The notes under the pieces: model-generated
The model's database searches: none
Told to the model about the DNA's origin: nothing
What the model saw: the letters and a program-made list of their open reading frames with translations, nothing else
Program-made: the position numbers and the translations under genes
From: Candidatus Komeilibacteria bacterium
GTDB taxonomy: Bacteria; Patescibacteriota; Patescibacteriia; UBA1558; UBA10009
Assembly: GCA_030688315.1 (NCBI GenBank)
Contig: JAUYIT010000027.1
Location: 33,135 to 97,134, forward strand
DNA: 64,000 bases
Direction: 5' to 3'
Shown: piece after piece, positions 13,411 to 61,292 of the stretch
Numbering within the stretch: position 1 is the stretch's first letter
Layout: every line of letters starts with the position of its first letter

Positions 13411-13422
13411 CAGCGACGTATT

Positions 13423-14817: not shown

Positions 14818-14889
14818 AAATCGCTTTTCACAAAAAAACAGAGCCAAAAAAATCTTTGACCCTGTTATTTAAATTTTGCTAATTATTTT

Positions 14890-22468: not shown

Positions 22469-23755
22469 TTATTCCGTCTTGGGTTCGATAAAAATGAAGC
22501 TCTTTAAGAACAACTGATAAGTGGTGTAAAAATTCATTTGCTGTTGGTTGCCGGTATCGTAAACCAAAACGTAAATACTGGAACCCACCGCCAGATAGGT
22601 ATTTAAGCCGTCGGGCGTTTGAATGGCCGGCAAGCCGCCTACCAGCACGCTTTTGAGAGCGGCGGCGTCAGCCGATTTGTTTTTATCCAAATACCAGTTT
22701 TTAGCCGAAAGACCCAAAGGATTTTCCTGAACTATCACTTCAATAAATTCGCCGGTGTTGGAAGTAAAAATCACTTCGCTGTTTTGGATGTTTAAAGACC
22801 GGGCCGGCCAGGGCACGGGATAAAAAACCGAATAATTATAACTGGGATTTTGGTAAATCCCAATCAGGCCGGAATCAACCAAGCGCCCATCGCCCTTGGG
22901 ATTGAAAAAATTCAAAATTTCCGAGGCGTCCACATAGCCGTCATTATCGGTATCGGCTTTGGCCGAATCGGTCTGAAAAATATTCTCTTCAATGTCGGTC
23001 AGCTGGTCGCCGTCAGAATCCTGACCTTTAGCCGGAGTTTGCGGAACGGTTGGCGTGCTTGGCAAATCCGTGCCGGGGTTTTCATCGGAAACTTCTTCGT
23101 TGGTCTGTTCTTCCAGCTGACTGGCGGGGAAAATGACTTCGGCCGTGGCCACGTAATCTCCCGCGGCCAATTTAAGCGTTCCCCAAACAGCATCAGCTTC
23201 TAAAGCAAAGGCCAGAAGATACCCTTTTTGCTCGGCCGTGGACGAATAAAGATAACTCTGCCCGCCCGGTTCGGGATTAGTTGGCAAAACTTCCATAAAA
23301 GGCCCGACTAAATTGCTTAAGGAATTAGGAAAAACCTGGTAAGTGCCGGCGTAAAGATTTAAGGCACTGCGGATATCGCCAATATCATTAAGGCGCTTGG
23401 CATCACGGGATGAGGCCGTGCTTAAAGTATCATTAGAGTTGGTATTGGCGTTATTATTGCTATTGTTGTTATCATTGCTATTGTCATTAACGTTTTCATT
23501 GGCATTAGTGTTAATAACCGGCAATTCCACAATCGGCATTGGCTCGGACTGTTTGTTTAAAAACCAAATCACGCCGGCAATAACGCCGCCTAAAGCCAAA
23601 AAAATAACAATACCCAACACCAGCCAGTTAAGGCGCTTGCCCTGCGGCGGCTGCATGGAATTTTGCCGAAACTGATCGGGCATGGTATGGATATCGCCGT
23701 CCGCTTCTTCCGCTGGCAGATCGGGGAGTTCAGAATTTTCTTTGGGTGTAAACAT
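22469..23755 (-). CDS. TM-anchored surface protein with pseudopilin-like core and thrombospondin-type-3 Ca-binding repeats (paralogue of 23780..24658)
   Basis: 428 aa. Cytoplasmic N-tail, one TM (WLVLGIVIFLALGGVIAGVIWFL), an Asn-rich linker, a segment SRDAKRLNDIGDIRSALNLYAGTYQVFP resembling the GspG/type IV pilin globular-domain start, DSDGDQLTD / DTDNDGYVDASE D-x-D-x-D-G repeats, and an NPKGDGRL motif. Confidence 0.65.
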   Translation of the reverse strand: MFTPKENSELPDLPAEEADGDIHTMPDQFRQNSMQPPQGKRLNWLVLGIVIFLALGGVIAGVIWFLNKQSEPMPIVELPVINTNANENVNDNSNDNNNSNNNANTNSNDTLSTASSRDAKRLNDIGDIRSALNLYAGTYQVFPNSLSNLVGPFMEVLPTNPEPGGQSYLYSSTAEQKGYLLAFALEADAVWGTLKLAAGDYVATAEVIFPASQLEEQTNEEVSDENPGTDLPSTPTVPQTPAKGQDSDGDQLTDIEENIFQTDSAKADTDNDGYVDASEILNFFNPKGDGRLVDSGLIGIYQNPSYNYSVFYPVPWPARSLNIQNSEVIFTSNTGEFIEVIVQENPLGLSAKNWYLDKNKSADAAALKSVLVGGLPAIQTPDGLNTYLAVGSSIYVLVYDTGNQQQMNFYTTYQLFLKSFIFIEPKTE

Positions 23756-23779
23756 TAAGTGAATTTAAGTTGCTGATCA

Positions 23780-24658
23780 TTAAAAATTAGCTTCCAATAA
23801 AGTGCCGGCCCCTTTGGGATTGTAGCCGCTGTTAACTTCAGCGCCGTCCAAATAACCGTCTCCGTCGGAATCAGGGTTTAAAGGATCCGTTAGGTATACC
23901 TTGACTTCCTCGCGATCCGATAACCCATCGTTGTCGCTATCGGGTTCCATGGGATTGGTGCCCAGATTATTTTCTTCCTGATCGCTTAAGCCGTCTTTAT
24001 CCGAATCCATGGCCGGCTCGGGCTGGTTGGAATTGGCATTGCTGTCCGCGGAATCTTCCGGACTGGGCAAAATCAAATTGTCATTGACGTTTTGATTATC
24101 GTTGGAATTCTGATTCTGATTATTATCAACGGTATCGTTAGCGTTAGCGTTATTATTGCCGAAATTAATAACATCATCCTGAAACTGGCGGTTGACCTCG
24201 GCCGGAGATAGACTGTTAATATTAAATTGAGGCAAATTTACGGCCGGATCGGCAAAAAACTTGGCATAAGCAAAATAGCCGCCCACTGCCAAAATAACGA
24301 TTAACACCGCCAAACCCACCCAAAAAAACTTTTTATTGCCGCCGGACTCATCTTCCAAATCATCCGGTAACTGCATTAAAGGTTCGGGCAAAACCGGATT
24401 AACCGGCGTATTAGCAACCCCGGACTGTTGCTGGGCATTTTGATTTAAGGAAACCGGTCTGGCGGCCTGATCAGTTTCGGCAAAAATATCCTCCATGCCC
24501 TGACCTTGAGGTGCTGAAGGCCCGCCTGCCGGCGAGGCAGGCGTAAAAGATCCGCCTTGCGGCGAAGCGGGCGCGCTTGGCTTTTGAGCCATTGATTCGC
24601 TTAAATTAATGCCGTCAACCAAGTTGGGTGCCGCGGGGTTGGGTTTTGGATCAAACAT
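23780..24658 (-). CDS. TM-anchored surface protein with thrombospondin-type-3 Ca-binding repeats (paralogue of 22469..23755)
   Basis: 292 aa. One TM (FFWVGLAVLIVILAVGGYFAYAKFF), an N/Q-rich linker, three DSD(K/N/G)DG(L/Y)xD repeats, and C-terminal NPKGAGTLLEANF. Confidence 0.65.
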   Translation of the reverse strand: MFDPKPNPAAPNLVDGINLSESMAQKPSAPASPQGGSFTPASPAGGPSAPQGQGMEDIFAETDQAARPVSLNQNAQQQSGVANTPVNPVLPEPLMQLPDDLEDESGGNKKFFWVGLAVLIVILAVGGYFAYAKFFADPAVNLPQFNINSLSPAEVNRQFQDDVINFGNNNANANDTVDNNQNQNSNDNQNVNDNLILPSPEDSADSNANSNQPEPAMDSDKDGLSDQEENNLGTNPMEPDSDNDGLSDREEVKVYLTDPLNPDSDGDGYLDGAEVNSGYNPKGAGTLLEANF

Positions 24659-33700: not shown

Positions 33701-34086
33701 GGCACGCCGGTGGCGCTGCTTAAACGGCTGATTATAAAAGCGGTAATAGCGTAGGCCGATAAAATAACAGCCAGGCCAATCACGGCATTAGTCATGATTT
33801 TTTTGGCGTCGGCGATTTTGTCTTCTTCGCCGCCCGCCGTCATCCATAAAAAACCGGCGTAGATGATTAAACCCGTGGCAATCACGCCTAAAAACCCGAG
33901 AAAAATATTAATGATTAATGCGATGGTGTCCTTGAGTCCGCGCGTGCCTAAATTAACACTAGTCAAATCATTAACGCCGTAATTATCAATATTTTGCGCC
34001 AAAACCGCTGACGGGGCGATTACAACAACCGCGCTAATAAACAGCAGGAAGATAAGTATTAATTTGGTTTTGCGTTTTATAAACAT
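24715..34086 (-). CDS. giant (3123 aa) Cys-rich cell-surface protein: N-terminal VirB2/TrbC-like pilin module + Ig-like + IPT/TIG + coiled coil + CGDG...EQCD Cys repeats + C-terminal lectin/ConA-like domain
   Basis: Single uninterrupted ORF (ATG...TAA). Residues 1-120 carry a signal peptide and a two-helix hairpin (IINIFLGFLGVIATGLIIYAGFLWMTAGGEEDKIADAKKIMTNAVIGLAVILSAYAI). Several IPT/TIG-like segments follow (e.g. PRIMAVSPDNGAKGNWVTISGRGFG, PNIVDFEPKNGNVGQYVNIYGSDFG), then a long Q/N/L-rich coiled coil (residues ~1980-2130) and at least 8 CGDG(I/V)xxxxEQCD Cys-rich repeats (~2560-2870). The terminal ~250 aa are beta-rich and lectin-like. More than 150 Cys overall. Confidence 0.85.
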   Translation of the reverse strand: MFIKRKTKLILIFLLFISAVVVIAPSAVLAQNIDNYGVNDLTSVNLGTRGLKDTIALIINIFLGFLGVIATGLIIYAGFLWMTAGGEEDKIADAKKIMTNAVIGLAVILSAYAITAFIISRLSSATGVPGGPGGPGDPDIPDLQRQFRVTSILPRGQQRIRNVVPQISFSQVINPALIDENNVLTNQEGIRVERANGQGGFERVAGTLTIDPNNQQRVKFTPQTNCPEPNERLFCFGYDENNADLNLYRVTVLSEAGVSLRSVGGLAVTCNGNSCVGEFRVGGLVDTQNPSVDFTEAVNRAGQHFDLTGRAIFSLDEVYNLFAQATDDGGLTSVDFFVAGNFLNTNEAGQDTPLEFLAQTEWPTNNLQPQAFELTTRAYDAAGHESALGRASVLIRPAHCFNNIQDENFEETGVDCGGACGACAGDPCGEVIENRCTDADNQICASNVCNVDSCLCQQPPRIMAVSPDNGAKGNWVTISGRGFGNTPGQIFIGDVEGRLPRFCQASWTDTQIILELPIELDLGNTQLSVITSQNLTSNRVDFSVNDIERPGICMLVPDQNPPGANFTLVGYQFGNINDPNQEKSVYFGRAEQNLAAAGPVWRAVEGRAFVSANLPNLNPGQTSVRVRIDGQDSNALAITVLPENNYPNIVDFEPKNGNVGQYVNIYGSDFGQYQEGQSKVIFTDNVEGTFDFPVECRADSSFWQDDHIIVKVPEGAADGTIMVQRADGRQDTTDQSFDYQAEADLAPGICSLYPREGQVGSTFEVAGEYFNGGTLKLGEQNLNARPDNQNQHFNNVPVPEGARSGPVKVVINNELQSNSLDFSVTGGAGGEEESPDSYYQWQFTTCENCVVPEVVESQSCQLGLASPTPLKNSLNNFVNTQISATFNTDMNNASFDLGSTVVVKSCGNGETPGNCAQVQNIDGEFEFGQGNSGEYFVLSLSSALQPSTWYQVTLGDLRSEQENLAMAEPYVWFFKTRDNNEVCQINAVSVNPNQRLIRNNNPVYLNDEVTYSGYPYNAENCNICPDTFSWSWNSSNPNQAEIDTESRVNQSLMTAKAITQSPVNITAQASNDEGQSGQGTAQVEIVPRDFGILFSQSCSIQPQSPSPYPSYQNACLNAKIAVQFNSIITDGLLAADALTLKQRGNNQTVAVTMAGGIYYEAGGRNGLRGVIFESEQNLLPNTWYEVSLNNNLANVDGGQFIGARSWQFKTQSGNELCQFNTVLVIPGTAILQPQESQNYSAETVDRESCQLLKEPNDLRWSWLSENETVAEVGQSNNHQNSALAKEIGETKIRAQALGEENTGNNGKLTVSQGEDIYLTITQHHPSGENVCQNALGQVRFNLGINQDLITPANFIVVEHGNDCPEAGCAVLTDISFNQDKTIISLLPQENNNLWKQQTRYEIKIRGNAEGIKTADEEELAQRGCGQGMIWDAGTAACSWSFTVGQNRCEVAAIEVTPASATINIGTWQEWSAYAVSAEGELLSDPIENWRTANANIATVDFSEGDTSRAQSRGIGEGETVIAAIIGNAPPGTASIRVNDILNGPAITGVVPQDGAQSVCRNAMVKVDFDKLLNKDTVKQNNFQLEYQVEAASQPAGCREEVVYHQNSGNWLSADNLIGQWLNNLAGKIFSSLWNSLFNRAQAVAYWCPVAGQWLEEHAGGQSQVYFSLTQALPVVSTVRATVVGGENGVKAVNGQPLAGNFSYSFRTGPDVCDLDFVTVAADQESGQKDWTFTTSFDNETDNNVEGENAEKFDTIYDGDKKYTASGFSQTGEQLAAIAGVYEWNWQWQTSNQSVAALDQSGPGFMVVKAQNKNGQSNIIASAVFPAVYQKPALSASAKAIVDICENRWNPITGDLNPDYKFIDPTYNFSLSYCRDAGGAGTMDDLPALFEPQPLDISSDNDPAKDDLLREYLIPVPTTGDVLGLRVYKNNLHLNPRAWYQKNINAAVQGNPSNTEVDGYEAIQDGRTVYVAAANVPQGSLSYNSDNNPVFVKADGWLANLWQGLKNVLADLSVNNILAAVAPPGTPPVAAFQQNFQNFNVVANRFANEGFRPADLAGAQADLNQARADYNRAALVQEGVSPQELNAYEAQLANLAADLTRYQGLVNGQTDLQNLLNELNRLQITGQQADRFIADFNNFNQGLSNGLQTSDLTDFEKQLDALQANADDLAGDLNVVVPNFNANDFRVINVGYRVNRINNAYTNIYLLSYNQNASPKTMEIVKRLMAKWQFNSNIDNPDLKEKLRRDVKRLADLTAVTQTVEAYQAGHNGAVPALTAGSFLSGRSNSKWPSWNQTLAPALSASLPVDPINKFNKCVVCTEPELVNAGFEDPNDLAGPAAAGDPGLNDESGWRLTLERAGLGVSHNTNRSFVKEGSASLGILSRNAQTGIVQPISLLPNTTYELSAWVYVVSGRAHLTFDGNDYGNEWLTPPDVTGWVLLKNRLVTNPAVGGGANGSNNFIFIRSHEGAATFYVDQATIQTQGGNCGYDRQTCWNPDANQSRGAFACDADSYFYSYETIGNNNYLLAAKMETTATWLSDQDQANRFNPHFRLSTAGVLGCNTQPIGARCGDGVVNGNEQCEPGMSNNYCPAGARWYTPRYLGCEAVGSKFGECTWVNPDNYGDDWDNLSIGQRCGGYCGDGILNSADWDYQISPAEQCDISAEAGADGFSNGVINGSDRDNQYACSASCRDIGGWCGDNIVQSFYGEQCDGNANGWSCQDGSTPSCNNNTCGVSCDSGGAYYGRCGDGYKQPEELCDGQIGVSQNNYCANSCQLLRCLDGYDACIDGGSVANGCETNIAYDINHCGRCGHRCPQPAHSSAVCSAVRGGWGCSFNCNDGYHREGDVCVASAECGNDVIEVGEACDDGPNNGNGNYCRADCSGFDLGQRIFLDNFDDAGVYSVPTGESWLAREHGNFEPAVWSIVQLNDDNNPFTLQGANPSDGDPQCGSSDRWFLKALVPPVFDVQNQNQNVTIVSRIKIKQGNPNTLILGNYDYNAQNAGQESAYALWPNINNQHRLSLVKVNRMDEHSGTDGVMSVLDQFSPVVENQPSLVPSETWYWLAMKISHSGNRANIKYIDWQDGEAMPAVADWHNATDNDNALNGRTFGVAVWGDCSTSWYDDFQVYIP
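33712..34086 (-). other. VirB2/TrbC-like pilin module (signal peptide + two hydrophobic helices with GGEEDKIADAKK loop) at the N-terminus of the giant protein
   Basis: Near-identical to residues 1-125 of the 592-aa paralogue and similar to residues 140-213 of the 327-aa protein at 56932..57915. Confidence 0.6.
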
Positions 34087-34143: not shown

Positions 34144-35922
34144 TTACTGGCAGTTAGGACTAACCTGCCCATCATCGCACGGGCCAACGGCCGGATTCAA
34201 ACAATTTTGATACATGTCCTGGATGCCGGCGGTCAGGCGCGGATTATAAACCGTTAACGGATTCAAATAAGGCGAGTAAGTCCTGATTACAGCCGTTGTT
34301 GCCCGATCAACATTTTGCTTGTAAACATTAAAACCGCCTTCCGGATAGCAAGTTAGGTCATCAGGAAATTCCGCCCCGTCGCAGGCGAATTTATAAACGG
34401 TATAGTTATCGCTGTTAACGGTGGAAGAGCGCAACAGTTCGCTAAAGCGCGCGTTGATCCGGCTGTTTTTGGGCACAGTGTCGGAACCCTGCTCCGGAGT
34501 GATACTTCTAACGGTTGGGGGCGTTAAATCCAGTTCATCGGTGGTATTAAAAGAAGAAGTGTAATTATCGTCGGGCTGGCCTTGAGCCGCGCCGTTAGCG
34601 TTGCCGTCCAAAGAATTGCCCGCGGCATCGGTAATACCCGATAACGGATCAAGCGTTTCGTTGTTGTTGACAATGGCGGCCTTAGCCAAAATAGCCAGCA
34701 GTTCGCTGCCCGGCAAACATTTGGGCGTTACCCCGCAGGAATTTTGTTCAACCGGCTGGCCGTTAACCTCACATACGGCAACCGGAATAAATTCCACGGT
34801 TCTAAAACGGTTGCTGATCATAAACTCGCCCGCTAAATATTGAACCGCTTCCTGTTCATTTTCATAACTGATTAAAATATTATTAAACGGTTCCTGGGCA
34901 TTGCCAGTCGCCACGCCAGTGGCGCTAAGCAAATTAACGGCCTCATTAAAATTGATTTGGAAAATAGCGTTTTTAGGTACGTTTGCACCGGCGGCCGGTT
35001 CCACGCTTTCCACTTGAGGCGGGGTTAAATCCGATAAATTGGAAACCTGGAACGACCAGTTAAAACCGCCGCTAAAGAAAGCTCTGTTGCCGCCAACTTT
35101 GGCAATCTGGTCGCTTAAATTAACCGTGTAATCGCTATTACCGTCCCCCGAACCCAGTAAAGGATTGGGATTAAAAACAAAATCACGGTTATTGCGGGTT
35201 AAGGCGATTACCTGGTTGGCCGCCAAAAAAGAATTGTCCGCGCTTCTGTTAATAATCTTGACTGACGGCACAACGGAATTGTCGCGCAAAGTAAATTCTT
35301 TAAGGTTGCCGCAAATTATTTCTTGAGGCAGGCCGGCGCATTCTTGCGGACGATTTTGAGTGTTAATGATGGTGGCCGTATCCATGGCTTCCTTAAAACT
35401 GACCATCAGCAGTACGTTGCGCGGAACGTCTCTGGCGCCCGGTTCCGGATAAACGTCGCGTAAAATTCCCCCGCCCAAAGCGCCGATGTTAACGTCAAAA
35501 GACCCTCTGCCCCCGCTGGGATCTTCGCCTCCCCGAGTGGCTTCATCCAGCCGGCTGATAATAAAACGGGCAATTAAATATGAAGACATGATAATAGCCA
35601 GGCCAATGACGGCGTTGCGGATGATTTTTTTGGCGTCGGCGATTTTGTCTTCTTCGCCGCCTGAAGTCATCCATAACCAGCCGGCATAGATAATGAGGCC
35701 CGTGGCAATCACCCCCAAAAACCCGAGAAATATATTAATGACCAAGGCGATAGTATCCTTAAGTTGGCGCGTGCCCAAATTGACCGAATCAAGATCATTA
35801 ATACCAAAATCGTCAGCGCTTTGCGCCAGTGCCAAAGCCGGTAAAACAAAAACAGCCACAATAAAGATACTCATCAATAAAGTAGCTGTTTTAAAGTTTA
35901 AGTTAAAAACCCTTAAAAGCAT
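34144..35922 (-). CDS. 592-aa surface protein: N-terminal VirB2/TrbC-like pilin module + Ig-like (SbsA/Big-type) domains, Cys-rich C-terminus; paralogue of the giant protein N-terminus
   Basis: Residues 40-125 (LKDTIALVINIFLGFLGVIATGLIIYAGWLWMTSGGEEDKIADAKKIIRNAVIGLAIIMSSY) are about 85% identical to the giant protein. The remainder is beta-rich and ends CLNPAVGPCDDGQVSPNCQ. Confidence 0.8.
   Translation of the reverse strand: MLLRVFNLNFKTATLLMSIFIVAVFVLPALALAQSADDFGINDLDSVNLGTRQLKDTIALVINIFLGFLGVIATGLIIYAGWLWMTSGGEEDKIADAKKIIRNAVIGLAIIMSSYLIARFIISRLDEATRGGEDPSGGRGSFDVNIGALGGGILRDVYPEPGARDVPRNVLLMVSFKEAMDTATIINTQNRPQECAGLPQEIICGNLKEFTLRDNSVVPSVKIINRSADNSFLAANQVIALTRNNRDFVFNPNPLLGSGDGNSDYTVNLSDQIAKVGGNRAFFSGGFNWSFQVSNLSDLTPPQVESVEPAAGANVPKNAIFQINFNEAVNLLSATGVATGNAQEPFNNILISYENEQEAVQYLAGEFMISNRFRTVEFIPVAVCEVNGQPVEQNSCGVTPKCLPGSELLAILAKAAIVNNNETLDPLSGITDAAGNSLDGNANGAAQGQPDDNYTSSFNTTDELDLTPPTVRSITPEQGSDTVPKNSRINARFSELLRSSTVNSDNYTVYKFACDGAEFPDDLTCYPEGGFNVYKQNVDRATTAVIRTYSPYLNPLTVYNPRLTAGIQDMYQNCLNPAVGPCDDGQVSPNCQ
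35548..35922 (-). other. VirB2/TrbC-like pilin module of the 592-aa paralogue
   Basis: See 33712..34086. Confidence 0.6.
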
Positions 35923-35961: not shown

Positions 35962-36405
35962 TTATTTTAGTTTTTCCTTAACCAAAGCGGAAATTCTTTG
36001 ACCGGCAACCGTGCCTTTGGTTTCGGCCATCACCATTTTCATGGCCTGGCCAAAATCCTTGGCCTCAAAATTGTTGGCACCGATTACTTTATCAACAATG
36101 ACGGCCAAATCAGCGTCATTCATTTCGGCCGGCAGATAACCGATCAAATGCTCAAGTTCGCCTGTTTCCTTATCTACCAAATCCTGCCGACTGGCCTGCT
36201 GGTAGCTGGCAATGGAATCGTTTCTTTTTTTGATTTCCGAACGCAAGGCCTTGACCATTTCCTCTTCCGTCAAGTCGCCCATTTTTTGAATCTGGGCGTT
36301 TTTTAAAGCCGCCTTGAACATTCGCAAAGTACCCACCTTGCTTTCGTTTTTAGCTTTTTGGGCTAAGATTAAATCCGCGTCAATTTGTTCAGCCAAGTTT
36401 GGCAT
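35962..36405 (-). CDS. yqeY: GatB/YqeY domain protein
   Basis: 147 aa with the YqeY family pattern. Directly follows rpsU, as in many Firmicutes-type operons. Confidence 0.85.
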   Translation of the reverse strand: MPNLAEQIDADLILAQKAKNESKVGTLRMFKAALKNAQIQKMGDLTEEEMVKALRSEIKKRNDSIASYQQASRQDLVDKETGELEHLIGYLPAEMNDADLAVIVDKVIGANNFEAKDFGQAMKMVMAETKGTVAGQRISALVKEKLK

Positions 36406-36437
36406 GCTAAATTTAGTTAGCGAATCTTAGATAAATT

Positions 36438-36692
36438 TTAACGTCTTTTTTTGCCGCGGCTGTTGCGGTCCAAAACGTCGTCCAGTTTGCCGATTTTGCG
36501 CAAATATTCGCGTTCGCTCCTGATTTCACCGCGCCTGATAGCGCTGGCTTTTTGCGCCCGTTTGCTGATGGGTTTTTGGTGAAAGCGGACTTTTTTGGCC
36601 TGGATCAGCTTGCCGCTCTGAATGGTTTTGCGGGTGAATCTTCTGATTAAGGATTCAAAGCTTTCGTTGTCTTTCTTTTTTACTTCTAGCAC
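36438..36692 (-). CDS. rpsU: 30S ribosomal protein S21
   Basis: 84 aa, basic, with an RRF..K...G and KR..KASA.RR core resembling S21. Confidence 0.7.
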   Translation of the reverse strand: MLEVKKKDNESFESLIRRFTRKTIQSGKLIQAKKVRFHQKPISKRAQKASAIRRGEIRSEREYLRKIGKLDDVLDRNSRGKKRR

Positions 36693-36812
36693 AATAATAC
36701 ACCTTCCTTTCTTAATAAGATAATTTCCCGGCTTTTAGCCGAAAAAAATACTATATAACTCATATAGTAATAACACATTTAAAAAAATTAGTAAAGTGTA
36801 AAACTAATCAAA

Positions 36813-38147
36813 CTACTGGTCGCTGACCACGGATTTTTCCAAACGTTTTTTAATTTCGGTCACGGCTTTATGGAAATCCACCACTTCCTGAATGCCGTTT
36901 TCCATATCCCTAATCATCACAGTGTCATCAATAATTTCTTTTTGCCCTAAAATAATAGTGAACTTAACGCCCAGTTTATCGGCCATTTCTAATTGAGGTT
37001 TTAAACCGCTTTTGGCAAAATTTTCCGCCACCCTAATGCCGGCCTGTTGCAGTTCTTCAAATAAAACAATGGCTTTTTTTCTGGCTTCCGGCCCTAGTTG
37101 GCCCAAAAAAATCTCGGGCTTGGGTTTTTCCGGCACCTTGGCGTCGGTTTCCTTTATTTGAGCGATAAATCTTTCCACGCCGCAGGCAAAACCGGAAGCC
37201 GGCGTGGGATTACCGCCCAGTAATTCCAATAAACCATCGTAACGGCCTCCCCCGCCCAAAGCGCTTTGGCGGCCGGCTTCGGAACTAGGAGAACCCGCTT
37301 CATCGGCACCGGACCAAATTTCAAAAGTTGTTTTGGTGTAATAATCCAAACCGCGCACAATGGTGGGGTTAAGAGCGTACGGCACACCCAGATCATCAAG
37401 ATATTCCAGCACCTGCGTAAAATGGTTACGACAATCTTCGCATAAAAAATCAATCTGCTGAGGTGCTTCGGCAATAATGGGCAGATCTTCTTTTTCCTTG
37501 GAATCCAAAACCCGCATGGGATTTTTTAACAATCGGGCCTGCGAAACTTCGCTTAATTTACTTTTCTGTTTTTTTAAATAATCTTTAAGCTCATTTTCAA
37601 AATCCGGCCGGCACGAAGGGCAACCGATGCTGTTGATTTGAATGTTGACAGGTAAATTGATGGCCTGGTAAATTTTGCTGGCAATTAAAATCAGCTGGGC
37701 GTCAATAATCGCGTCGGGTTCGCCAATTACTTCAAAACCAAATTGGTAGTGCTGGCGATAACGGCCGGCCTGGGGCCGATCGCGCCTAAACATTGGTTCA
37801 AAATAGTACAACTTGACGGGCTGGGGCAAATTTAACATGCCATGCTCAATGTAAGCCCGACCAACAGCGGCCGTGCCTTCGGGCCGCAAAGCCAAATTAT
37901 CTTCGCCCTGATCCACAAAAGAATACATTTCTTTTTCCACAATATCGGTAGAAGTACCCACGGCCCGCACAAACAAATCCGAAAATTCCAGCACCGGCGT
38001 ATCAATTCTGGAAAAACCGTATGACTTGGCCACCCGGTCGATTAAATCCCTGGTAAAATCCCAATAACGCTGTTCTTCGGGCAAAATATCGCGCATGCCT
38101 TTAACCAGCTGAAACGGTTTTCTTTTTTTAACTTCTTTTTTTAACAT
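36813..38147 (-). CDS. hisS: histidine--tRNA ligase
   Basis: 444 aa. Class II motifs (LRPEGTAAV motif 2 region, GGGRYDGL motif 3) and a C-terminal anticodon-binding domain. Confidence 0.93.
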   Translation of the reverse strand: MLKKEVKKRKPFQLVKGMRDILPEEQRYWDFTRDLIDRVAKSYGFSRIDTPVLEFSDLFVRAVGTSTDIVEKEMYSFVDQGEDNLALRPEGTAAVGRAYIEHGMLNLPQPVKLYYFEPMFRRDRPQAGRYRQHYQFGFEVIGEPDAIIDAQLILIASKIYQAINLPVNIQINSIGCPSCRPDFENELKDYLKKQKSKLSEVSQARLLKNPMRVLDSKEKEDLPIIAEAPQQIDFLCEDCRNHFTQVLEYLDDLGVPYALNPTIVRGLDYYTKTTFEIWSGADEAGSPSSEAGRQSALGGGGRYDGLLELLGGNPTPASGFACGVERFIAQIKETDAKVPEKPKPEIFLGQLGPEARKKAIVLFEELQQAGIRVAENFAKSGLKPQLEMADKLGVKFTIILGQKEIIDDTVMIRDMENGIQEVVDFHKAVTEIKKRLEKSVVSDQ

Positions 38148-38159
38148 AATCTTTCTGGT

Positions 38160-38801
38160 TTAAGGCAAAATATTAATCGGAGTTTTAAATAAAGTAAATT
38201 TGTTGAAAGGAAATGCCCGCAACAGCGCCTTGCCTTTAATGTTAGCGGTGGTAATGGGTCCGATGCGTCGGGAATCCAAACTATTGGCGCGGTTATCGCC
38301 TACCACATAATACTGCTCGTCGGTTAATAAAACCCGGCTTTCTTCATTAACCTGATTTTGAGTTAGGTAACCGGATTCATCAATTACCTGCCCTTGAGGG
38401 AACTCATTATTATATATAAAAATCTTGCCGTCTTTTAGCTCCACGGTTTCGGCAGGCAAACCGATGATTCTTTTGATGTAGTAAACGTTGGGTGAAAGGG
38501 GCGGATGAAAAATAACCACGTCGCCCCGTTGCGGCGTTTTAAAACGGTAGCTGATTTCGTCAACAATCAAATATTCACCGTCATGAAAATTGGGCACCAT
38601 GGAATCGCCTTCCACTATAAACGGCTGAACCACAAACATTCTAACGGGGATAATGATGGCCAAAGAAAAAACAATGATTTTAACGATTTCAAAAAAATAT
38701 TCCTTAAAACCGTGGCCCGAAGAACTTGGCTCTAAATTGGGTTCTTGACCCAAGGTAGTTTGTTGATCGTCCGTTTCGCCTCTTAAATCAATAATGTTCA
38801 T
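38160..38801 (-). CDS. lepB: signal peptidase I
   Basis: Catalytic Ser box GDSMVPNF, Lys box YIKRIIGLPAE, GDNRANSLDSR box. The track ORF extends to 39011 across the tRNA-Val gene (the GQLAQLVRALH..WFESS artefact); trimmed to the ATG at 38801. Confidence 0.88.
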   Translation of the reverse strand: MNIIDLRGETDDQQTTLGQEPNLEPSSSGHGFKEYFFEIVKIIVFSLAIIIPVRMFVVQPFIVEGDSMVPNFHDGEYLIVDEISYRFKTPQRGDVVIFHPPLSPNVYYIKRIIGLPAETVELKDGKIFIYNNEFPQGQVIDESGYLTQNQVNEESRVLLTDEQYYVVGDNRANSLDSRRIGPITTANIKGKALLRAFPFNKFTLFKTPINILP

Positions 38802-38865
38802 TAAAATATTTATGGTTGAATTGTACTTAATGTAACAGATAAGCCGGGCTAAAGCAAATTTAAAC

Positions 38866-38942
38866 TGGTGGACAATGCTGGATTCGAACCAGCGACCTTT
38901 GCAATGTGAATGCAACGCTCTAACCAGCTGAGCTAATTGTCC
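38866..38942 (-). tRNA. tRNA-Val (anticodon CAC)
   Basis: Reverse complement gives GGACAAT-TA-GCTC-AGCTGGTTA-GAGC-G-TTGCA-TTCACAT-TGCAA-AGGTC-GCTGG-TTCGAAT-CCAGC-ATTGTCC-A-CCA. Confidence 0.85.
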
Positions 38943-39073
38943 ATTTACACAAAAATACCTTATTTTTTGAAAAATTAAGGTAATAATAGCACTTAAAAAG
39001 CTAAAAATCAAGCCCGTAGGAAAGCCGGCTTTTGATTGACTGAAAACCTTATTTTTATTATAATTGGCTTACT

Positions 39074-49621: not shown

Positions 49622-49625
49622 AAAA

Positions 49626-50399: not shown

Positions 50400-50547
50400 A
50401 TTGAGGTAATTATACTGAAAATTTGAGAAATTATCAATCATGCCCCACCAAACCCTTGACAAATATTATTAATTGTGATAGTTTGATATGAAATCTAAAA
50501 TAACTCTTAGATTCAACTAAACCGCACTTTCAAAAAAGGGAGGAAGT

Positions 50548-54819: not shown

Positions 54820-55147
54820 TTTCTATTTCTTGCAAAATTACAGCTAAATGATACTCAAGATCCTTCTGGTTGATATTTTCCGTATTACCCTTAAAATAAA
54901 TAGTGATGGGAATCAAGGTATTCCTGAATTCCCAAAGAAAAACAATAACCCGAAATGACTTGCTCTTGCCCCTAGGTAAATCTGAACTTTTCAGACGCAG
55001 TTTATATAACTTATGACCCAAGGGTGTAACTAAATCTTTATTAAAATCCTTTAACTGCTTAATTAAATCATCAGTTAAGCCCGGGTATTTCTTTAAAAGA
55101 GATTTTAGTTGTCTTAAAAAATGAACTGCTAAATAAATCTCATACAT
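54812..55147 (-). CDS. RelE/ParE-superfamily toxin-like protein (type II TA toxin)
   Basis: 111 aa, basic. Its start overlaps the radA stop region and it sits 2 nt downstream of an RHH protein gene. The pattern KLYKLRLKSSDLPRGKSKSFRVIVF..IYFKG is consistent with the RelE/HigB fold. Confidence 0.5.
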   Translation of the reverse strand: MYEIYLAVHFLRQLKSLLKKYPGLTDDLIKQLKDFNKDLVTPLGHKLYKLRLKSSDLPRGKSKSFRVIVFLWEFRNTLIPITIYFKGNTENINQKDLEYHLAVILQEIENE

Positions 55148-55151
55148 AAAC

Positions 55152-55415: not shown

Positions 55416-55426
55416 AAGTATATTGA

Positions 55427-56154: not shown

Positions 56155-56826
56155 TTACTGATCTCGGCAAGAAGCAGTACTAATATGATAGTGGTTACTA
56201 TTCTCCAATGCATGATAGCCTACATATCTTGCACACTGACTGATAGCTCTTTCAAAATATTGAAAATTTTCTTCATCACCAAAATCAACCGCGTATGACT
56301 TACCATCATTGACATCTCCTCCGTAATGGCATGAGTTCCAAAGATGGTCGCAATTTGCCGGCTTGTTGTTCTGAACATGACAGGCGCCCAAATTACCAAT
56401 ATAATCGGAATCGCTGATTGAGGAAATTCTGCCAATTACTACCGGCGGACTCCCTTCACGGCTAAGTTGTCTTTCAAATTCATTAAATTTTGGCCTTAAA
56501 CAATTTAAAAGATTTATTAATCCCTGGGAAGCATCAGATAGTTGCGCCTGAATACCGTCATCAAAGTGCCAACCGCCCGTAACACCCGCCTCATCAGCTC
56601 CTCCAAAATTTCTCTCCATACATGTTTTAGGCCCAATTGGAGGGTTAGCTACATAACAAATTTTATTACCCGGCAACCAGGTTACATTGTTGTTTGGGTT
56701 AGGAGAAGGACAAATACCTGATTTGCTAAAATTACCCATAACATCTTTGGTACAGATCATATCTTTAAATTTTGAACCTATATCTCCTGTAAAGGAGCTT
56801 AAGGCCAATCCCCCGACTTTCGCCAC
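56155..56826 (-). CDS. Cys-rich protein with possible LAS-type (M15/M23-like) zinc peptidoglycan-hydrolase motifs; in frame with the upstream 327-aa ORF across a single TAA
   Basis: 223 aa with 12 Cys. H-x6-D in CHYGGDVND and HxH in NHYHIS. GTG start at 56826 (first ATG at 56760). No signal peptide of its own. A strong hairpin terminator (aacagggtcaa...ttgaccctgtt) lies 3' of it. Confidence 0.4.
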   Translation of the reverse strand: MAKVGGLALSSFTGDIGSKFKDMICTKDVMGNFSKSGICPSPNPNNNVTWLPGNKICYVANPPIGPKTCMERNFGGADEAGVTGGWHFDDGIQAQLSDASQGLINLLNCLRPKFNEFERQLSREGSPPVVIGRISSISDSDYIGNLGACHVQNNKPANCDHLWNSCHYGGDVNDGKSYAVDFGDEENFQYFERAISQCARYVGYHALENSNHYHISTASCRDQ

Positions 56827-56931
56827 ACCATTATAATCAAAGCAATCATCTATCGTGGAACAATCAACATCAATTAACGCGCAAGTATTACCAATAATCT
56901 CATGTTTAAAGCTTGTTGAAAAAGTGCATAT

Positions 56932-57915
56932 TTACTTACGATTCGTCTCTTGAAAAGTTGGCGTGAAGAGATTGCAACCATTTTCGTTTTTAGGTATGCC
57001 GTACTTGTCCATAGTAGTATTATCAACCTGATCACACTTCAAGCAATTTGCTTCTCCTAAACGTTGGTTAAAATAACAAACCGCGCCATCTAGATATTCC
57101 GAGCAACCCCTGCCTATACATTCTTGGTTTGTACCCTTAACCTTGGCTTTTTGACCGCAACTAAGATTTTGTCCAATATCATCCTTACCGTCAACTGTAA
57201 CAGCTGCATCGGGTTCACAAAAATCTCCCACCTGCGACTTATTAATTTTACTGACGTCCAGCGGCGAAAATTCAACCAATTTAGGGTTAATCGTATTCAA
57301 AATAAGCCACGAGCCAAGGACTAAAATTAAACCGATGATGGCGCCGATGATAATTTCCTTGGCTTTCGTGATTTTTCCAGAATCGCCGCTGGAAAAAAGC
57401 CATAACAATCCGCCAATAGCGATCATAATAACCGCCACAATACCGGCCACGCCCACTAAAAATTTGTATAAAGCACTAATATAATTTCCAAGCAAACTAT
57501 TATCAACGTTACTGGTTTTAGGAAAACCTGGTAATGAAATATTAGGAGTAAACTTCAAATCCTCCCTAGGAATGGCTCTTTCTCCAACTGCCGAAGGTGC
57601 TGGGCATAAGTCAGAATTATAACAATAATCTAAAGAGCATGTTACACCGCCAACTAATCCTGTTTGACTAGGATCAAGATTAGGATTAGCTATAACCACG
57701 CCTTGACTTTCACATGTTGCTTGTGTTATATACCTGGTACAAGATCTTACTTCTCTATCATCTCCAGCTGACCTATTTATTTCTCTACAAATACAACACT
57801 TACCGCTATCTTCGGATGGACCGATGAAACCCTGGGCTAAAGCATTTTGCGGAACAACAATAAAACCAAGACCTAAAAGGTAAAATGATAATAATACTAT
57901 TTTAACTGATTTCAT
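56932..57915 (-). CDS. secreted Cys-rich protein with internal VirB2/TrbC-like pilin hairpin module (third copy)
   Basis: 327 aa. Signal peptide, Cys-rich N-domain (CCICREINRS...), then LYKFLVGVAGIVAVIMIAIGGLLWLFSSGDSGKITKAKEIIIGAIIGLILVLGSWLIL (two TM plus a basic loop, compare GGEEDKIADAKK in the giant protein), then a Cys-rich C-domain. Confidence 0.7.
   Translation of the reverse strand: MKSVKIVLLSFYLLGLGFIVVPQNALAQGFIGPSEDSGKCCICREINRSAGDDREVRSCTRYITQATCESQGVVIANPNLDPSQTGLVGGVTCSLDYCYNSDLCPAPSAVGERAIPREDLKFTPNISLPGFPKTSNVDNSLLGNYISALYKFLVGVAGIVAVIMIAIGGLLWLFSSGDSGKITKAKEIIIGAIIGLILVLGSWLILNTINPKLVEFSPLDVSKINKSQVGDFCEPDAAVTVDGKDDIGQNLSCGQKAKVKGTNQECIGRGCSEYLDGAVCYFNQRLGEANCLKCDQVDNTTMDKYGIPKNENGCNLFTPTFQETNRK
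57277..57498 (-). other. VirB2/TrbC-like pilin hairpin module inside the 327-aa protein
   Basis: See 33712..34086. Shared G(L)LW(L/M)xSGG(E/D)xxKIxxAKxxIxxAxIGL signature. Confidence 0.55.
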
Positions 57916-57934
57916 AAGACGACTTAATTATATC

Positions 57935-58615
57935 TTACTTTAGCGCCTTTTCCAACTGCTCTAGCGTTATTTCCTGATTAAACCTCTGGTTATTAACAAA
58001 CAAATAAGGCGTGCCGTCTAAACGGAGGCCCTGGCCTTCCTGAAAATCTTCCATAATTAAAGGCAGAGTTTGCTGATTATCATAACACTGGCTGAATTTA
58101 GCCAGATCCAATTTTAAAGCCGAGGCGACTTGGGTATATAAATTTGAACCCAACTGGTCCTGATTGGCGTAAAGGTAATCATGGAATTCCCAGAATTTAT
58201 TTTGAACTTGGGCGCAACGGGCGGCAATGGCCGCGCGCTGGCTTTGCTGATAATCGGGATTGGGATAATCTTTCCAAATCAATAACACATCGGCGGGATG
58301 ATTTTGTAACAGTTGGCCCAAAACTTGTTCCGCGTCCGCGCAATGCGGACACTGAAAATCGCTATAAATAACCAGCTGGTTTTTGGCGGTTGTTTGGCCT
58401 AAAGCCGGGTCGGTGGCTCTTAACACCGGCGCGGTTAACAAGGGTTGAGTTACTTGCTGACTGACATTATTTAACGACTCCAAATATTCTTGATCATCTT
58501 TTAAAACTTTGGCGCCATAATAGTAACGAGTTACAATCAAAATCGTAAAAACAAGCAACAGCCCCAAGGCGAGGTAAACTAAGCGGTTGACTTGTTTGGG
58601 GTTAAGGTCAGACAT
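57935..58615 (-). CDS. membrane-anchored DsbA-family thiol:disulfide oxidoreductase (second copy, inside the T4SS-like operon)
   Basis: 226 aa. TM anchor, active site FQCPHC, DsbA-like C-terminal cis-Pro region (DGTPYLFVNNQ). Confidence 0.8.
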   Translation of the reverse strand: MSDLNPKQVNRLVYLALGLLLVFTILIVTRYYYGAKVLKDDQEYLESLNNVSQQVTQPLLTAPVLRATDPALGQTTAKNQLVIYSDFQCPHCADAEQVLGQLLQNHPADVLLIWKDYPNPDYQQSQRAAIAARCAQVQNKFWEFHDYLYANQDQLGSNLYTQVASALKLDLAKFSQCYDNQQTLPLIMEDFQEGQGLRLDGTPYLFVNNQRFNQEITLEQLEKALK

Positions 58616-58617
58616 GA

Positions 58618-59865
58618 TTACAATTTAATGCTGTAAACCTTCCCGTTATTGGCATCTTGGAAAAACAGGGTTTTTTCATCCGGCGATAAGGAAACATTGC
58701 TAGCGGAATAAGCATTTAAATCGCCCACCGGAGTAGCTAACACCGAAATCTGGCCGGTTTGCAAATCCACTTTGTAAAAAGCATCGGCGGAATTTTTGGC
58801 CAATTGCGGATACAAACCGCTGCCGCTGGGCAAATAATCGGGCACCCCACAATAAGCAGTAATGCCATCGGCGGCCAGAGCGCATTTTTCCGGCCAGGTG
58901 GCTAAGCCCAAATCCAAATTGCCCGCGCCCGCGTTATCGCCGCCGGCCTGGACCGATTGCAGGATTGGTTTAAAATCATTATCGGTGCGGTAAACACTGT
59001 ACAATAGACGATCGCCTTTAGCCGACCATTTGCCTTTAAAGCCGTGACCGTTAACCGTAAGCGATTGAAAATTTTCCTGATTGCGACCGATAAAAATGAC
59101 TTCTTGAGCGTTGTTGCCCGTGTTTTTGCGGTACATAGCCACCATTTGCCCGTTGGGGGACCAGTTGATATCCACATCGGCGGACTTGGCGCCCAACCGT
59201 TCCACAAACTGAATATTGGAACCGTCGGGGTTGGCCGTAACGATCCAGTTATTTTCTTCCTGTGGACCGATAGCCGCGGCCGCCAATTGTCCGGCATCAG
59301 TGGAAAAAGAGAATTTTTCCAGTTCTTTAGGCAAAGCGTATTGCTGTTTTTTAACAAAATCATAAACGATATTGGAACCGTCGGGATATTCCAGCACGGC
59401 GCTGTTGCCTTTAGGCGCCCAGGTAATGTTTTGCACGGCGTAAAAACGCTGATCTGTCAGCTGGCTAACGGATCCGTCCGCGTTGATTTTGTAAAAACGG
59501 CCTTCGGCGGAATTAAAATAATTAACTCCCCCGTTTTGATTGACTGTAGGCGCAACCACGCGCGACGAACTAAAATTGTTAACCAAAGTATAGCTGCCAT
59601 TGGCGGTTTCGGAAACTGTCACGTCTTCCGGGATCTGACTGATAAAAGGCAATCCGGCGTTGACGTTTAAACCACCGACGCGATTAACATTACCTTCCGG
59701 CAATTCCGGCAATTGGCCGGCCGGAGTATTAACGTTAATCAAATTGCCCGGAGGCAAAGCCGCTTGCGGCGGTTTAAAGAAAAAATAATACATTAAATAG
59801 CCAAGACCAATCACCGCGCCCGCGAACAGAATGATGATGATTGTTTTTTTTATTCGTTCATTCAT
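58618..59865 (-). CDS. TM-anchored beta-propeller protein (TolB/PD40-like repeats)
   Basis: 415 aa. N-terminal TM helix, then repeated SP(D/N)G..(I/V)AF-type blades (NWSPNGQMVAMY, SLSPDEKTLFF, TANPDGSNIQF). Confidence 0.6.
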   Translation of the reverse strand: MNERIKKTIIIILFAGAVIGLGYLMYYFFFKPPQAALPPGNLINVNTPAGQLPELPEGNVNRVGGLNVNAGLPFISQIPEDVTVSETANGSYTLVNNFSSSRVVAPTVNQNGGVNYFNSAEGRFYKINADGSVSQLTDQRFYAVQNITWAPKGNSAVLEYPDGSNIVYDFVKKQQYALPKELEKFSFSTDAGQLAAAAIGPQEENNWIVTANPDGSNIQFVERLGAKSADVDINWSPNGQMVAMYRKNTGNNAQEVIFIGRNQENFQSLTVNGHGFKGKWSAKGDRLLYSVYRTDNDFKPILQSVQAGGDNAGAGNLDLGLATWPEKCALAADGITAYCGVPDYLPSGSGLYPQLAKNSADAFYKVDLQTGQISVLATPVGDLNAYSASNVSLSPDEKTLFFQDANNGKVYSIKL

Positions 59866-60716: not shown

Positions 60717-61292
60717 TTATTCCTGCCAAACGGCGCTATCCACCAACCAGCTGTCGTCGGATTTGACCAATGATAATTCAAGGTCCTGATAATAAACAAA
60801 ATCCTCGGCGCCGTCCTTGCGTTCGCTTCGTTGCAAACTGACCGTAACTTGGGCCGTGCCGGCCCCTTCATCCAAATTAGTGATTTCCGTTTTTAAGGCC
60901 TTGGAAGAAACGCCGTAAAATGTTTGACCGGATGCTGACGTTAACATTTCCGCCTTCAACTGATTGATGTCTAATTGCATGTTGGCGGTAGCCATTAGTT
61001 TGACTTCTTCCAGATTTAAAAACTGGCTGTCGGTAGAAAAACTGGCGTAGCGTTCGGCAAAATTACGGGCCGTGTTGACCGCGGTTTGTTCAGCCGGCTT
61101 AAGAGTAACAATCGACACAATTGGCACCGCGCCTTTGTTGACTTCGGGTACGGCCGTATTAACGTTCTGGTTGGTTTTTGCCTCTGGCTGATTAGGAGTA
61201 AAAAACGACTGATCGGTCAGCAACAAAGCAATGGCCAGCCCGGCCAGAACTAAGACGATAATGGCGATGATGATTATTTTTTTTCTGTTCAT
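60717..61292 (-). CDS. N-terminally TM-anchored extracytoplasmic protein (size and topology compatible with a VirB8-like scaffold; unproven)
   Basis: 191 aa. One TM (IIIIAIIVLVLAGLAIALLL) then a soluble domain. Confidence 0.4.
   Translation of the reverse strand: MNRKKIIIIAIIVLVLAGLAIALLLTDQSFFTPNQPEAKTNQNVNTAVPEVNKGAVPIVSIVTLKPAEQTAVNTARNFAERYASFSTDSQFLNLEEVKLMATANMQLDINQLKAEMLTSASGQTFYGVSSKALKTEITNLDEGAGTAQVTVSLQRSERKDGAEDFVYYQDLELSLVKSDDSWLVDSAVWQE

Follow-up and report, generated by a model that had tools for sequence, protein, structure and literature searches.

Pilin-type hairpin modules in a conserved two-gene cassette and in a VirB4 operon of a Candidatus Komeilibacteria genome, and their fusion to large ectodomains

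We report on a window of 64,000 nucleotides (the whole stretch of DNA analysed, from contig JAUYIT010000027.1), which is part of the core chromosome of a metagenome-assembled genome (MAG) of Candidatus Komeilibacteria, class ABY1 of the ultrasmall Patescibacteria, and on three proteins encoded in it that share a module of the type found in pilins of type IV secretion systems (T4SS). The window encodes EF-G, S7, ComEC, CysRS, RF, NrdR, FtsZ and FtsA, then two TSP3-type membrane proteins, a giant protein of 3123 aa, a 592-aa protein, YqeY, S21, HisRS and LepB, and after LepB it carries the genes for LytR, Der, Pth, DprA, a Mur-ligase-like protein, RelA/SpoT, ParB, ParA, RecG and RadA, followed by a short insert and a T4SS operon. 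The module is present in the giant and in its 592-aa neighbour, together referred to as the cassette, and in a 327-aa protein of the T4SS operon. An earlier sequence-only reading had named these three carriers, and we confirm all three at their positions (Table 1) as well as the distance of 23 kb between the operon protein and the cassette.

A hidden Markov model (HMM) of the three modules, run against the six-frame translation of the window, recovered only these three copies (E-values of 7e-64, 8e-62 and 5e-32); no further copy was detected in the translation, the next best match having an E-value of 0.29, and the same scan gave no free pilin gene in the 64 kb. Each carrier has an N-terminal signal-peptide-like helix ending in LA/Q (the slash marking the site, which was read from the sequence and its conservation), and then two hydrophobic helices with a short charged loop between them. 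The loop is GGEEDKIADAKK in both cassette proteins and SGDSGKITKAKE in the operon protein. In an alignment of 95 family members that includes the modules of the giant and the 592-aa protein (profile A1), the alanine of the A/Q site (A30) is conserved in more than 90%, and G67, G78, M82, T83, G86 and G104 are invariant, with invariant non-hydrophobic residues lying within the motif Y-A-G-F-L-W-M-T-A-G-G ... A-K. A hydropathy scan predicted no transmembrane (TM) segments in the giant beyond the signal peptide and the two helices, and the AlphaFold2 model of its module has helices at residues 5-23, 51-83 and 88-124, with a predicted local distance difference test score above 90 for the hairpin. 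The modules of the giant and the 592-aa protein have an identity of 71% over all 125 aa, which rises to 82% when only the mature module (88 aa) is compared and to 85% for the hairpin (72 columns), so that the identity of about 85% reported earlier holds for the hairpin; at the DNA level they are 77% identical. The operon module is more divergent, with 27-30% identity to both cassette modules.

All three modules score above the gathering score of PF18895 (T4SS_pilin; 26.6 bits), with 37.7 bits for the giant, 37.0 for the 592-aa protein and 42.9 for the operon protein, E-values of 2e-9 to 5e-11 and matches that span positions 2-71 or 7-71 of the 71 profile positions. The profile check proposed by the sequence-only reading was thus positive for this family, and it was negative for PF04956 (TrbC/VirB2), where the scores of 21.4, 18.1 and 19.2 bits (E-values of 3e-4 to 3e-3) are below the gathering score of 27.9 bits. 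With NF045849 the giant, the 592-aa and the operon modules reach 34.1, 27.3 and 23.9 bits, all below the equivalog cutoff of 40 bits. Comparison of profile A1 using hhalign gave 97.3% probability (E-value 2.8e-11, 72 columns) to a Bacillota protein annotated as "Mbov_0395 family pilin-like conjugal transfer protein" (Pontibacillus, WP_207531472 region), the gene of which (cluster L087) lies 4 kb from a CD1110-family VirB4 gene and adjoins a DD-metalloendopeptidase gene. In the same type of comparison the probability was 19% for Agrobacterium VirB2 (E-value 1.2e-3, helix 1 only; this VirB2 sequence was checked to be 100% identical to the annotated virB2) and 3.7%, i.e. not significant, for PrgF of pCF10. 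Fold searches returned generic helical hairpins only, e.g. ATP synthase subunit c and CHMP4B. When scored with an HMM built from free pilins only, fused modules have medians of 119-122 bits, compared to 144 bits for the free pilins themselves, while the modules of the giant and the 592-aa protein reach 141 and 132 bits. All three modules truly belong to PF18895, the T4SS pilin family of Patescibacteria, whose VirB2-like hairpin of two helices is the companion of the monoderm-type VirB4 system in these bacteria.

In the giant the module is followed by a Gly/Pro linker, Big_7, TIG, three Big_5 domains, a Big_2-like domain, CBM_4_9, DUF4215-type Cys repeats and a lineage-specific C-terminus, which comprises the last 220 residues. 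Residues 1-1300 are kept in most of 76 orthologous giants, with conserved blocks to approximately residue 2900, and a giant ortholog of 3032 aa is present at the same position in the relative L001. In the 592-aa protein a Gly-rich linker connects the module to three Big_5 Ig-like domains, and a Cys cluster at the C-terminus is conserved; the protein is 100% identical to P0121, annotated as [quoted passage not shown]; its combination of PF18895 with PF13205 (Big_5) recurs in proteins of 520-680 aa that form at least 336 clusters at 90% identity. The hairpin occupies the first 4-20% of the two cassette proteins. Very large regions are indeed fused to it, but their earlier description as huge extracellular Cys-rich domains holds only in part: the ectodomains are mostly Ig-like (Big_5, TIG, Big_7 and Big_2) together with CBM_4_9, and the 84 Cys residues of the giant form Cys-rich stretches only at approximately residues 400-500 and 2500-2900.

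The conservation of the cassette was surveyed with one genome per GTDB species, which gave at least 256 relatives of the 592-aa protein, and the best 80 loci were analysed, 76 of these being evaluable, i.e. having enough downstream sequence. In 73 of the 76 a gene for a protein of approximately 600 aa is followed by a second module-led gene after a median gap of 7 nt, and in the other three the downstream gene encodes about 1,650 aa with a divergent but similar N-terminus. Where complete, the second cassette gene encodes 1,544-3,446 aa (median approximately 3,000); about 30 cases run past the fetched stretch. The relatives L001, L003 and L004 (66%, 37% and 36% identity) have the order LepB, HisRS, (S21), YqeY, pilin-Big_5 protein and module-led giant, which in two of them (L001 and L004) is closed by a TSP3 protein. 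The cassette nearly always lies downstream of lepB and hisS: at a distance of up to 10 kb, HisRS is encoded in 68 of the 80 species and LepB in 64. The record names of the carriers include Komeili-, Buchanan-, Falkow-, Uhr-, Magasanik- and Nomurabacteria and Paceibacter. Hence, what had been taken for an island is a vertically conserved core locus beside lepB-hisS-rpsU-yqeY and ftsA/ftsZ. VirB4, the TraC-like protein and DsbA were found within 10 kb of the cassette in none of the 80 species; VirB4 is encoded elsewhere in the same genomes where this was checked (the window, L005 and all six Komeilibacteria of Table S1 in PMC12102498). No assembly ATPase or other dedicated machinery is encoded beside the cassette, and a promoter and terminator scan around it gave sites no more numerous than in shuffled sequence.

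Some species have additional module genes at this locus: a small pilin gene (167 aa) lies between the cassette genes in L003 (11763-12266), and an ORF (open reading frame) of approximately 250 aa with a C-terminal module lies just upstream of the cassette in L033 (9111-9836), L035 (9023-9784), L059 (9081-9830) and L063 (1775-2533). The cassette can be part of a larger pilin array in some species. Many of the cassette-bearing GTDB MAGs (L015, L017, L019, L021-L023, L025, L027, L028 and others) carry the title "uncultured Gammaproteobacteria bacterium", which looks like a placeholder or a mislabel.

The two cassette hairpins (F and G) were compared within and between the 76 genomes. The median F/G identity within a genome is 61% (range 40-97) and the cross-genome mean is 49%, and the within-genome value exceeds the cross-genome value in 71 of the 76. 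Independent divergence since an old duplication would give equal identities within and between genomes, and therefore the two hairpins have not diverged independently. Strict concerted evolution, as first seen in four genomes, was rejected since the 76 genomes show a real but partial effect with orthologs usually being nearest: the closest module in another genome is of the same type in 65 (F) and 63 (G) of the 76, and a genome's own partner hairpin is the nearest in just 17-20, the window being among these. In the window the mature modules differ by 27 synonymous and 16 non-synonymous codons and share an identical run of 41 nt over the loop, and in L001 the corresponding differences are 17 synonymous and only two non-synonymous. 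We read these patterns as the outcome of gene conversion in episodes, of co-evolution or of both; in each case the hairpin pair is kept functionally alike.

An exhaustive HMMER search of 1.84 billion cluster representatives with the module of the giant as query gave 26,561 representatives at E≤1e-3, of which 6,252 were at E≤1e-10. Among the 150 closest, 30 are free pilins (≤170 aa), 70 have a single module with a C-terminal extension and 50 have tandem hairpins. In the extended proteins the module ends by residue 152 and is followed by 50 to approximately 5,900 residues; 32 of them are 171-1000 aa and 38 are 1,018-6,060 aa in length. The tandem proteins carry 2-9 hairpins after a single signal peptide, and in these "poly-pilins" (P0311, P0314, P0367 and 47 others) the hairpins are covalently linked by linkers of 25-35 residues. 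The 11-unit relative P0367 scores 263.6 bits with PF18895 and 144.6 bits with PF04956, the latter only when summed over nine stretches. A word-indexed homolog search, in which nearly all matches were about 130 aa, had suggested that fusions are rare; this was overturned by the exhaustive search, and the word-indexed search is biased in that it missed even the 85%-identical neighbour of the giant.

In the operon protein the hairpin lies between two Cys-rich domains, as described before, with eight Cys ahead of it and eight behind. The protein is 100% identical to P0241, annotated as "pilin [Candidatus Komeilibacteria bacterium]". Its closest relatives (P0242-P0245) are 359-565 aa and have a C-terminal domain that corresponds to the next ORF of the window (56155-56826, minus strand; 56% identity, E-value 6e-68). 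The two ORFs are in the same frame with one TAA between them, and because the homology to the fused relative continues across this stop the operon protein is the front part of an ancestral gene of approximately 560 codons with a Hedgehog/DD-peptidase-like end, in the order signal peptide, 8-Cys domain, hairpin, 8-Cys domain, further Cys-rich stretch and C-terminal domain. The TAA (56932-56934) may have arisen by nonsense mutation, may be polymorphic among strains or may stem from an error of assembly. As the part downstream of it lacks both a signal peptide and a TM helix, it would be cytoplasmic if translated. We infer that the C-terminal domain is a wall hydrolase, and it is a candidate LAS zinc peptidase, a group whose metal-binding motifs are H-x3-D and H-x-H. 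Relatives of the operon protein carry the module beside NlpC/P60, YkuD, VanY, SLT, M15_4, fn3 or Big_1 domains.

Table 1. Positions of the module-bearing genes and of neighbouring genes in the 64-kb window.
Feature	Position	Strand	Evidence or remark
Giant surface protein, 3123 aa	24715..34086	-	Domain matches, giant orthologs
Pilin-type module of the giant, aa 1-125 (signal peptide, helix 1, loop GGEEDKIADAKK, helix 2)	33712..34086	-	PF18895 37.7 bits
Pilin-Big_5 protein, 592 aa, first cassette gene	34144..35922	-	Big_5 81.7 bits over 3 stretches
Pilin-type module of the 592-aa protein, aa 1-125	35548..35922	-	PF18895 37.0 bits
Operon protein, 327 aa (signal peptide, 8-Cys domain, hairpin, 8-Cys domain)	56932..57915	-	Ends at TAA 56932-56934
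Pilin-type module inside the operon protein, aa 140-213, loop SGDSGKITKAKE	57277..57498	-	PF18895 42.9 bits
In-frame continuation after the TAA: further Cys-rich stretch and Hedgehog/DD-peptidase (LAS)-like domain	56155..56931	-	CHYGGD ... HYHIS motifs
Membrane-anchored DsbA-like thiol oxidoreductase, directly upstream of the operon pilin	57935..58615	-	Thioredoxin_4 101.7 bits, DSBA 60.4 bits
415-aa protein, N-terminal TM (aa 8-26), beta-propeller-like ectodomain	58618..59865	-	Weak TolB/PD40 matches
272-aa protein, disordered N-terminus, about 3 TM helices	59880..60698	-	Position conserved in L005 (283 aa)
191-aa protein, one TM helix and ectodomain	60717..61292	-	Position conserved in L005, L006
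VirB4-type ATPase, 616 aa, monoderm (CD1110/PrgJ) kind	61303..63153	-	PF19044 98.7 bits; NF045971 conju_CD1110 352.8 bits
TraC-like/TrsD-like protein, 247 aa	63163..63906	-	NF045975 positions 87-238; NF041427 TrsD
Upstream synteny block LepB-HisRS-S21-YqeY	35962..39011	-	Recurring gene order in relatives
LepB signal peptidase	38160..39011	-	
HisRS	36813..38147	-	
S21	36438..36692	-	
YqeY	35962..36405	-	Ends 39 nt ahead of the 592-aa gene
292-aa membrane protein with bacterial TSP3 (Ca-binding) repeats, directly downstream of the giant	23780..24658	-	PF18884 68.4 bits
428-aa single-TM protein, TSP3/EF-hand-like Asp-rich motifs, second gene downstream of the giant	22469..23755	-	

The remainder of the operon encodes a VirB4-type ATPase above the NF045971 cutoff of 325 bits, as expected for a monoderm (MPF-FATA-like) T4SS, the NCBI family name of which is also borne by PrgJ of pCF10. 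The 247-aa TraC-like protein, encoded just upstream, represents the N-terminal domain of VirB4 as a separate gene; this split of VirB4 is kept in L005 and L006, and the TraC-like ortholog in L005 carries PF26593 (TraC-like). The order TraC-like, VirB4, 191-aa protein, 272-aa protein, 415-aa protein, DsbA, pilin fusion and RadA is conserved in L005 and L006, the DsbA-like gene and the 415-aa protein included, and in both a PrgI gene (PF12666) is located just upstream of the TraC-like gene, a position which in our case is beyond the window end. The profile searches gave no family assignment for the polytopic 272-aa protein and the 191-aa protein, and for the former no VirB6 family match either. 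No coupling protein (T4CP) or relaxase domain, both required for conjugation, was found among the 51 ORFs of the window scanned against Pfam (a few ORFs of at least 150 aa are not among these), which agrees with the literature on Patescibacteria (PMC12102498).

Between the T4SS operon and radA there is an insert (54812-55957, minus strand) with a Bro-N ORF (55427-55957) and two small ORFs (54812-55147 and 55152-55415) that resemble a toxin-antitoxin pair and are putatively one. Because radA directly follows the pilin gene in L005 and L006, the insert looks like a small mobile or phage-derived insertion. The parB and parA genes (48710-50462, minus strand) are approximately 6 kb from the T4SS operon, suggesting that the window is close to the replication origin and in agreement with a published remark that patescibacterial T4SS genes are often near the origin; dnaA was not seen in the window. 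There are two membrane-anchored DsbA-like oxidoreductases in the window (107-853 and 57935-58615, both on the minus strand), which fits a heavy use of disulfide-rich surface proteins. ComEC is present as two adjacent ORFs (12526-14847, minus strand), one with the Competence/DUF4131 part (13423-14847) and one with the metallo-beta-lactamase domain (12526-13410). LepB next to the cassette has an N-terminal extension of about 100 residues in this genome; in RP4 the LepB homolog TraF matures the TrbC pilin. Downstream of the giant, the 292-aa TSP3 protein, with one TM helix, is found at the same position in L001 and L004 and, using phmmer, at 27 of the 80 species loci, and the 428-aa protein at 22; both (22469-24658) carry long low-complexity N-termini. 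Since they recur downstream of the cassette in 22-27 of the 80 species, the two TSP3-type proteins are possible partners of the giant.

Head-to-tail cyclisation, as known for VirB2 and TrbC, would be precluded by a C-terminal fusion, and we know of no large fusions among the VirB2/TrbC/TraA pilins. The window modules resemble these pilins (PF04956) in leader peptide, two hydrophobic helices, charged loop, termini predicted outside and a weak colinear profile similarity, but are below the PF04956 threshold, and the alignment to VirB2 covers helix 1 only. An analogy is offered by the large minor and tip pilins known from type IV pili and by the archaeal "bindosome", in which a small hydrophobic pilin module serves as a handle for larger ectodomains, although these pilins are of an unrelated type with a single N-terminal helix and use a prepilin peptidase and other machinery. 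With PrgF of pCF10 and the NF045849 proteins the modules share a small two-TM hairpin, a charged loop and being encoded with a CD1110-family VirB4; those proteins are, however, 75-150 aa without an ectodomain, the window modules fall below the NF045849 cutoff and the similarity to PrgF is not significant. The PF18895 pilins described so far (PMC10633639, PMC12102498) agree in profile family, signal peptide and hairpin, charged loop, one copy in the VirB4 operon and source class ABY1, whereas they are treated as small (about 120-140 aa) and often arrayed, compared to 3123, 592 and 327 aa here with two copies far from virB4. The operon protein is comparable to wall hydrolases of the PrgK/TcpG class (VirB1 analogues) in that a membrane-tethered, putatively peptidoglycan-acting domain is encoded in a VirB4 operon, as is the DD-metalloendopeptidase next to VirB4 in the Bacillota cluster L087, and patescibacterial relatives fuse the hairpin to hydrolase domains directly (NlpC/P60, SLT, VanY, YkuD and M15_4). 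Extended VirB6 proteins (PMC12857230) are likewise T4SS membrane components enlarged by big extracytoplasmic domains, but these are polytopic subunits rather than VirB2-like hairpins and occur in other lineages. The Pam pilus of bacteria of the candidate phyla radiation (bioRxiv 10.64898/2026.03.03.709456) was considered and is unrelated, having Ig-fold subunits, donor-strand exchange and no hairpin.

VirB2-like pilins of Patescibacteria are essential in Southlakia (PMC10633639), and they have been reported in 1,948 assemblies, near virB4 in 1,135 and in arrays of 2-11 genes (PMC12102498); because only these 1,135 of the 1,948 have a pilin near virB4, adjacency to virB4 does not strictly define PF18895 pilins. 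In archaea-parasitising Patescibacteria they belong to the unknown-function genes with the highest expression (PMC10936435), and a review presents them as a first indication that a monoderm T4SS may have pili (PMC12857230). The census paper did not detect adhesins, and its tables are without protein lengths (PMC12102498). The literature that we searched treats these pilins as small and has no discussion of fusions, in keeping with the earlier statement that pilins fused to giant arms are not a described T4SS feature, and in full-text searches neither pilin-ectodomain fusions nor the lepB-linked cassette nor a hairpin-hydrolase operon protein were found described. The pilin family is known and the sequences are public and machine-annotated, while the fused architecture and the conserved cassette seem to be absent from published discussion. 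The most valuable new element is the two-gene cassette, with its deep conservation, together with the variety of hairpin fusions.

How might such proteins be placed? A signal peptidase would cut the leader, leaving the new N-terminus outside, helix 1 would run inward, the charged loop would be cytoplasmic and helix 2 would run outward, so that anything fused to either end of the hairpin would be displayed outside the cell. The Ig, CBM, Cys-rich and peptidase domains would be extracellular because this predicted topology puts both termini outside, and extracellular ectodomains would fit the adjacent DsbA. The analysis shows the family membership of the module, the architecture of its carriers, their conservation and their genomic context, and from these we infer the topology, surface display, the adhesin and hydrolase roles and any interaction with the T4SS. 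The hairpin may then be a modular unit for membrane insertion and assembly of surface proteins in this lineage. The cassette would provide an Ig-stalk protein of approximately 600 aa and an adhesin-like giant of 1.5-3.5 thousand aa for attachment to a host or a surface, tethered by their matching hairpins, and the operon pilin would bring disulfide-rich domains and, ancestrally, a wall hydrolase for a VirB1-like activity at the machine. Through the hairpin the ectodomains would enter the membrane pool of free pilins, beside the VirB4/VirB6 machine, and at most a few copies would be drawn into or onto a pilus.

In the reading that we favour, at about even odds (roughly 0.5), the hairpin acts mainly as a membrane anchor of T4SS type, which also serves for docking, and adhesin-like and hydrolytic ectodomains are displayed by means of it. 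This is favoured because the module is promiscuous, with enzyme fusions included, because shafts of subunits of 600-3,000 aa are sterically implausible and because the cassette is consistently apart from virB4. The sequence-only reading had offered a recruited membrane anchor as the alternative to a filament of giant subunits, and given the promiscuity of the module (hydrolase fusions, 2-11 tandem copies) the anchor fits at least as well. Several observations weigh on the other side. A cleavable leader with a conserved hairpin exceeds the need of a plain anchor, since a single TM helix that stays uncleaved is enough for this, and the degree of conservation of the hairpin equals that in free pilins, both of which suggest a function beyond anchoring; and the tandem poly-hairpins of up to 11 units suggest hairpins that pack together like pilus subunits. 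The link to archetypal VirB2 pilins is itself weakened by the hhalign result with Agrobacterium VirB2 and by the failure of sequence and profile searches with the module to find a pilin among PDB chains. Moreover, in VirB2-type pili, solved and modelled, both termini point outward and the subunits pass from the membrane pool onto a VirB6 pentamer (bioRxiv 10.64898/2025.12.18.695078). Because both termini point outward, a C-terminal cargo would be compatible with pilus incorporation and with a membrane-resident state alike, so that the anchor-only part of this reading is a tentative one.

It is possible, though less probable, that these proteins are true pilus components, with VirB4/VirB6 extracting the hairpins from the membrane and polymerising them and the cassette and operon proteins being built into a VirB2-type pilus as its minor or tip subunits. 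Such a pilus would carry adhesins and a wall hydrolase at a distance from the cell, replacing the missing VirB5 and PrgB-type adhesins, neither of which has been found in Patescibacteria (PMC12102498). A hairpin conservation that is indistinguishable from that of free pilins, the outward termini and assembly on VirB6 of VirB2-like pili (bioRxiv 10.64898/2025.12.18.695078), the flexible Gly/Pro linkers after helix 2, the likeness of the hairpin pair in each genome, the lateral packing implied by tandem hairpins, the extra small pilin genes in or next to the cassette (L003, L033, L035, L059 and L063) and the elaborate leader-plus-hairpin design would all suit such subunits. They are less easily reconciled with a cassette that in 80 species is never within 10 kb of VirB4 and whose hairpins share just 27-30% identity with the pilin encoded in the operon of that genome, or with the steric problem of the shaft; no free pilin is encoded in the 64-kb window, YkuD or VanY enzymes are not obviously useful on a fibre, and according to a 2025 review a VirB2-type pilus has not yet been observed on any patescibacterium (PMC12857230). 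Alternatively, the cassette hairpins might self-associate into a membrane platform or fibre base of their own, without VirB4, the cassette being a separate ancient surface organelle of ABY1/Paceibacteria-type Patescibacteria that shares only a hairpin ancestor with the T4SS pilins. The synteny with the housekeeping genes lepB, hisS, rpsU and yqeY (with ftsA/ftsZ near) and with T4SS genes in none of 80 species, the separate orthologous lineages of the F and G hairpins (65 and 63 of 76), the TSP3-repeat membrane proteins conserved downstream and the existence of covalently concatenated hairpins point in this direction; we nevertheless regard it as unlikely, as VirB4 is present in the same genomes wherever checkable (the window, L005 and the six Table S1 Komeilibacteria), the cassette hairpins score as typical members against free-pilin profiles and no assembly ATPase or machinery is encoded next to the cassette.

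That there is no pilin relationship at all, the module being a generic signal peptide with a two-TM anchor whose profile matches stem from hydrophobic composition, is very improbable. The generic hairpins returned by the fold searches, the lack of a PDB pilin in sequence and profile searches, the PF04956 scores below threshold and the low hhalign probabilities (3.7% to PrgF and 19% to VirB2) would be expected of such an anchor, but not the PF18895 matches over the whole profile (E-values of 2e-9 to 5e-11), the invariant non-hydrophobic residues of the motif, the 97.3% probability to a pilin-like protein of a Bacillota T4SS cluster, the copy within a conserved VirB4 operon or the 11-unit relative that passes PF04956 with 144.6 bits; the profile and context results largely refute it. 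More speculatively, the VirB2-type hairpin might be a general handle by which the essential, relaxase-less T4SS extracts hairpin-tagged giant adhesins and wall hydrolases from the membrane and mounts them on a conjugative-type pilus or at its tip, with the lepB-linked cassette as a conserved adhesive tip or decoration; we would put this as no better than a tentative suggestion. If it were true, the T4SS would primarily be an organelle for host attachment and wall breaching.

Much of bacterial diversity is accounted for by Patescibacteria, which live attached to host cells. Their T4SS and its pilin array are essential for epibiotic growth in one genetically tractable species (PMC10633639). Censuses that score each PF18895 match as a small "pilin" mix very different proteins, and the cassette is a well-defined target for proteomics, cryo-electron tomography and multimer modelling. 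Should fusion of the hairpin to giant Ig/lectin-type adhesins and to wall hydrolases be the rule, attachment and wall-cutting proteins would be presented to the host by the pool of pilins and possibly by the pilus as well, and such presentation could explain the apparent lack of VirB5, of PrgB-type adhesins and often of VirB1 in these bacteria.

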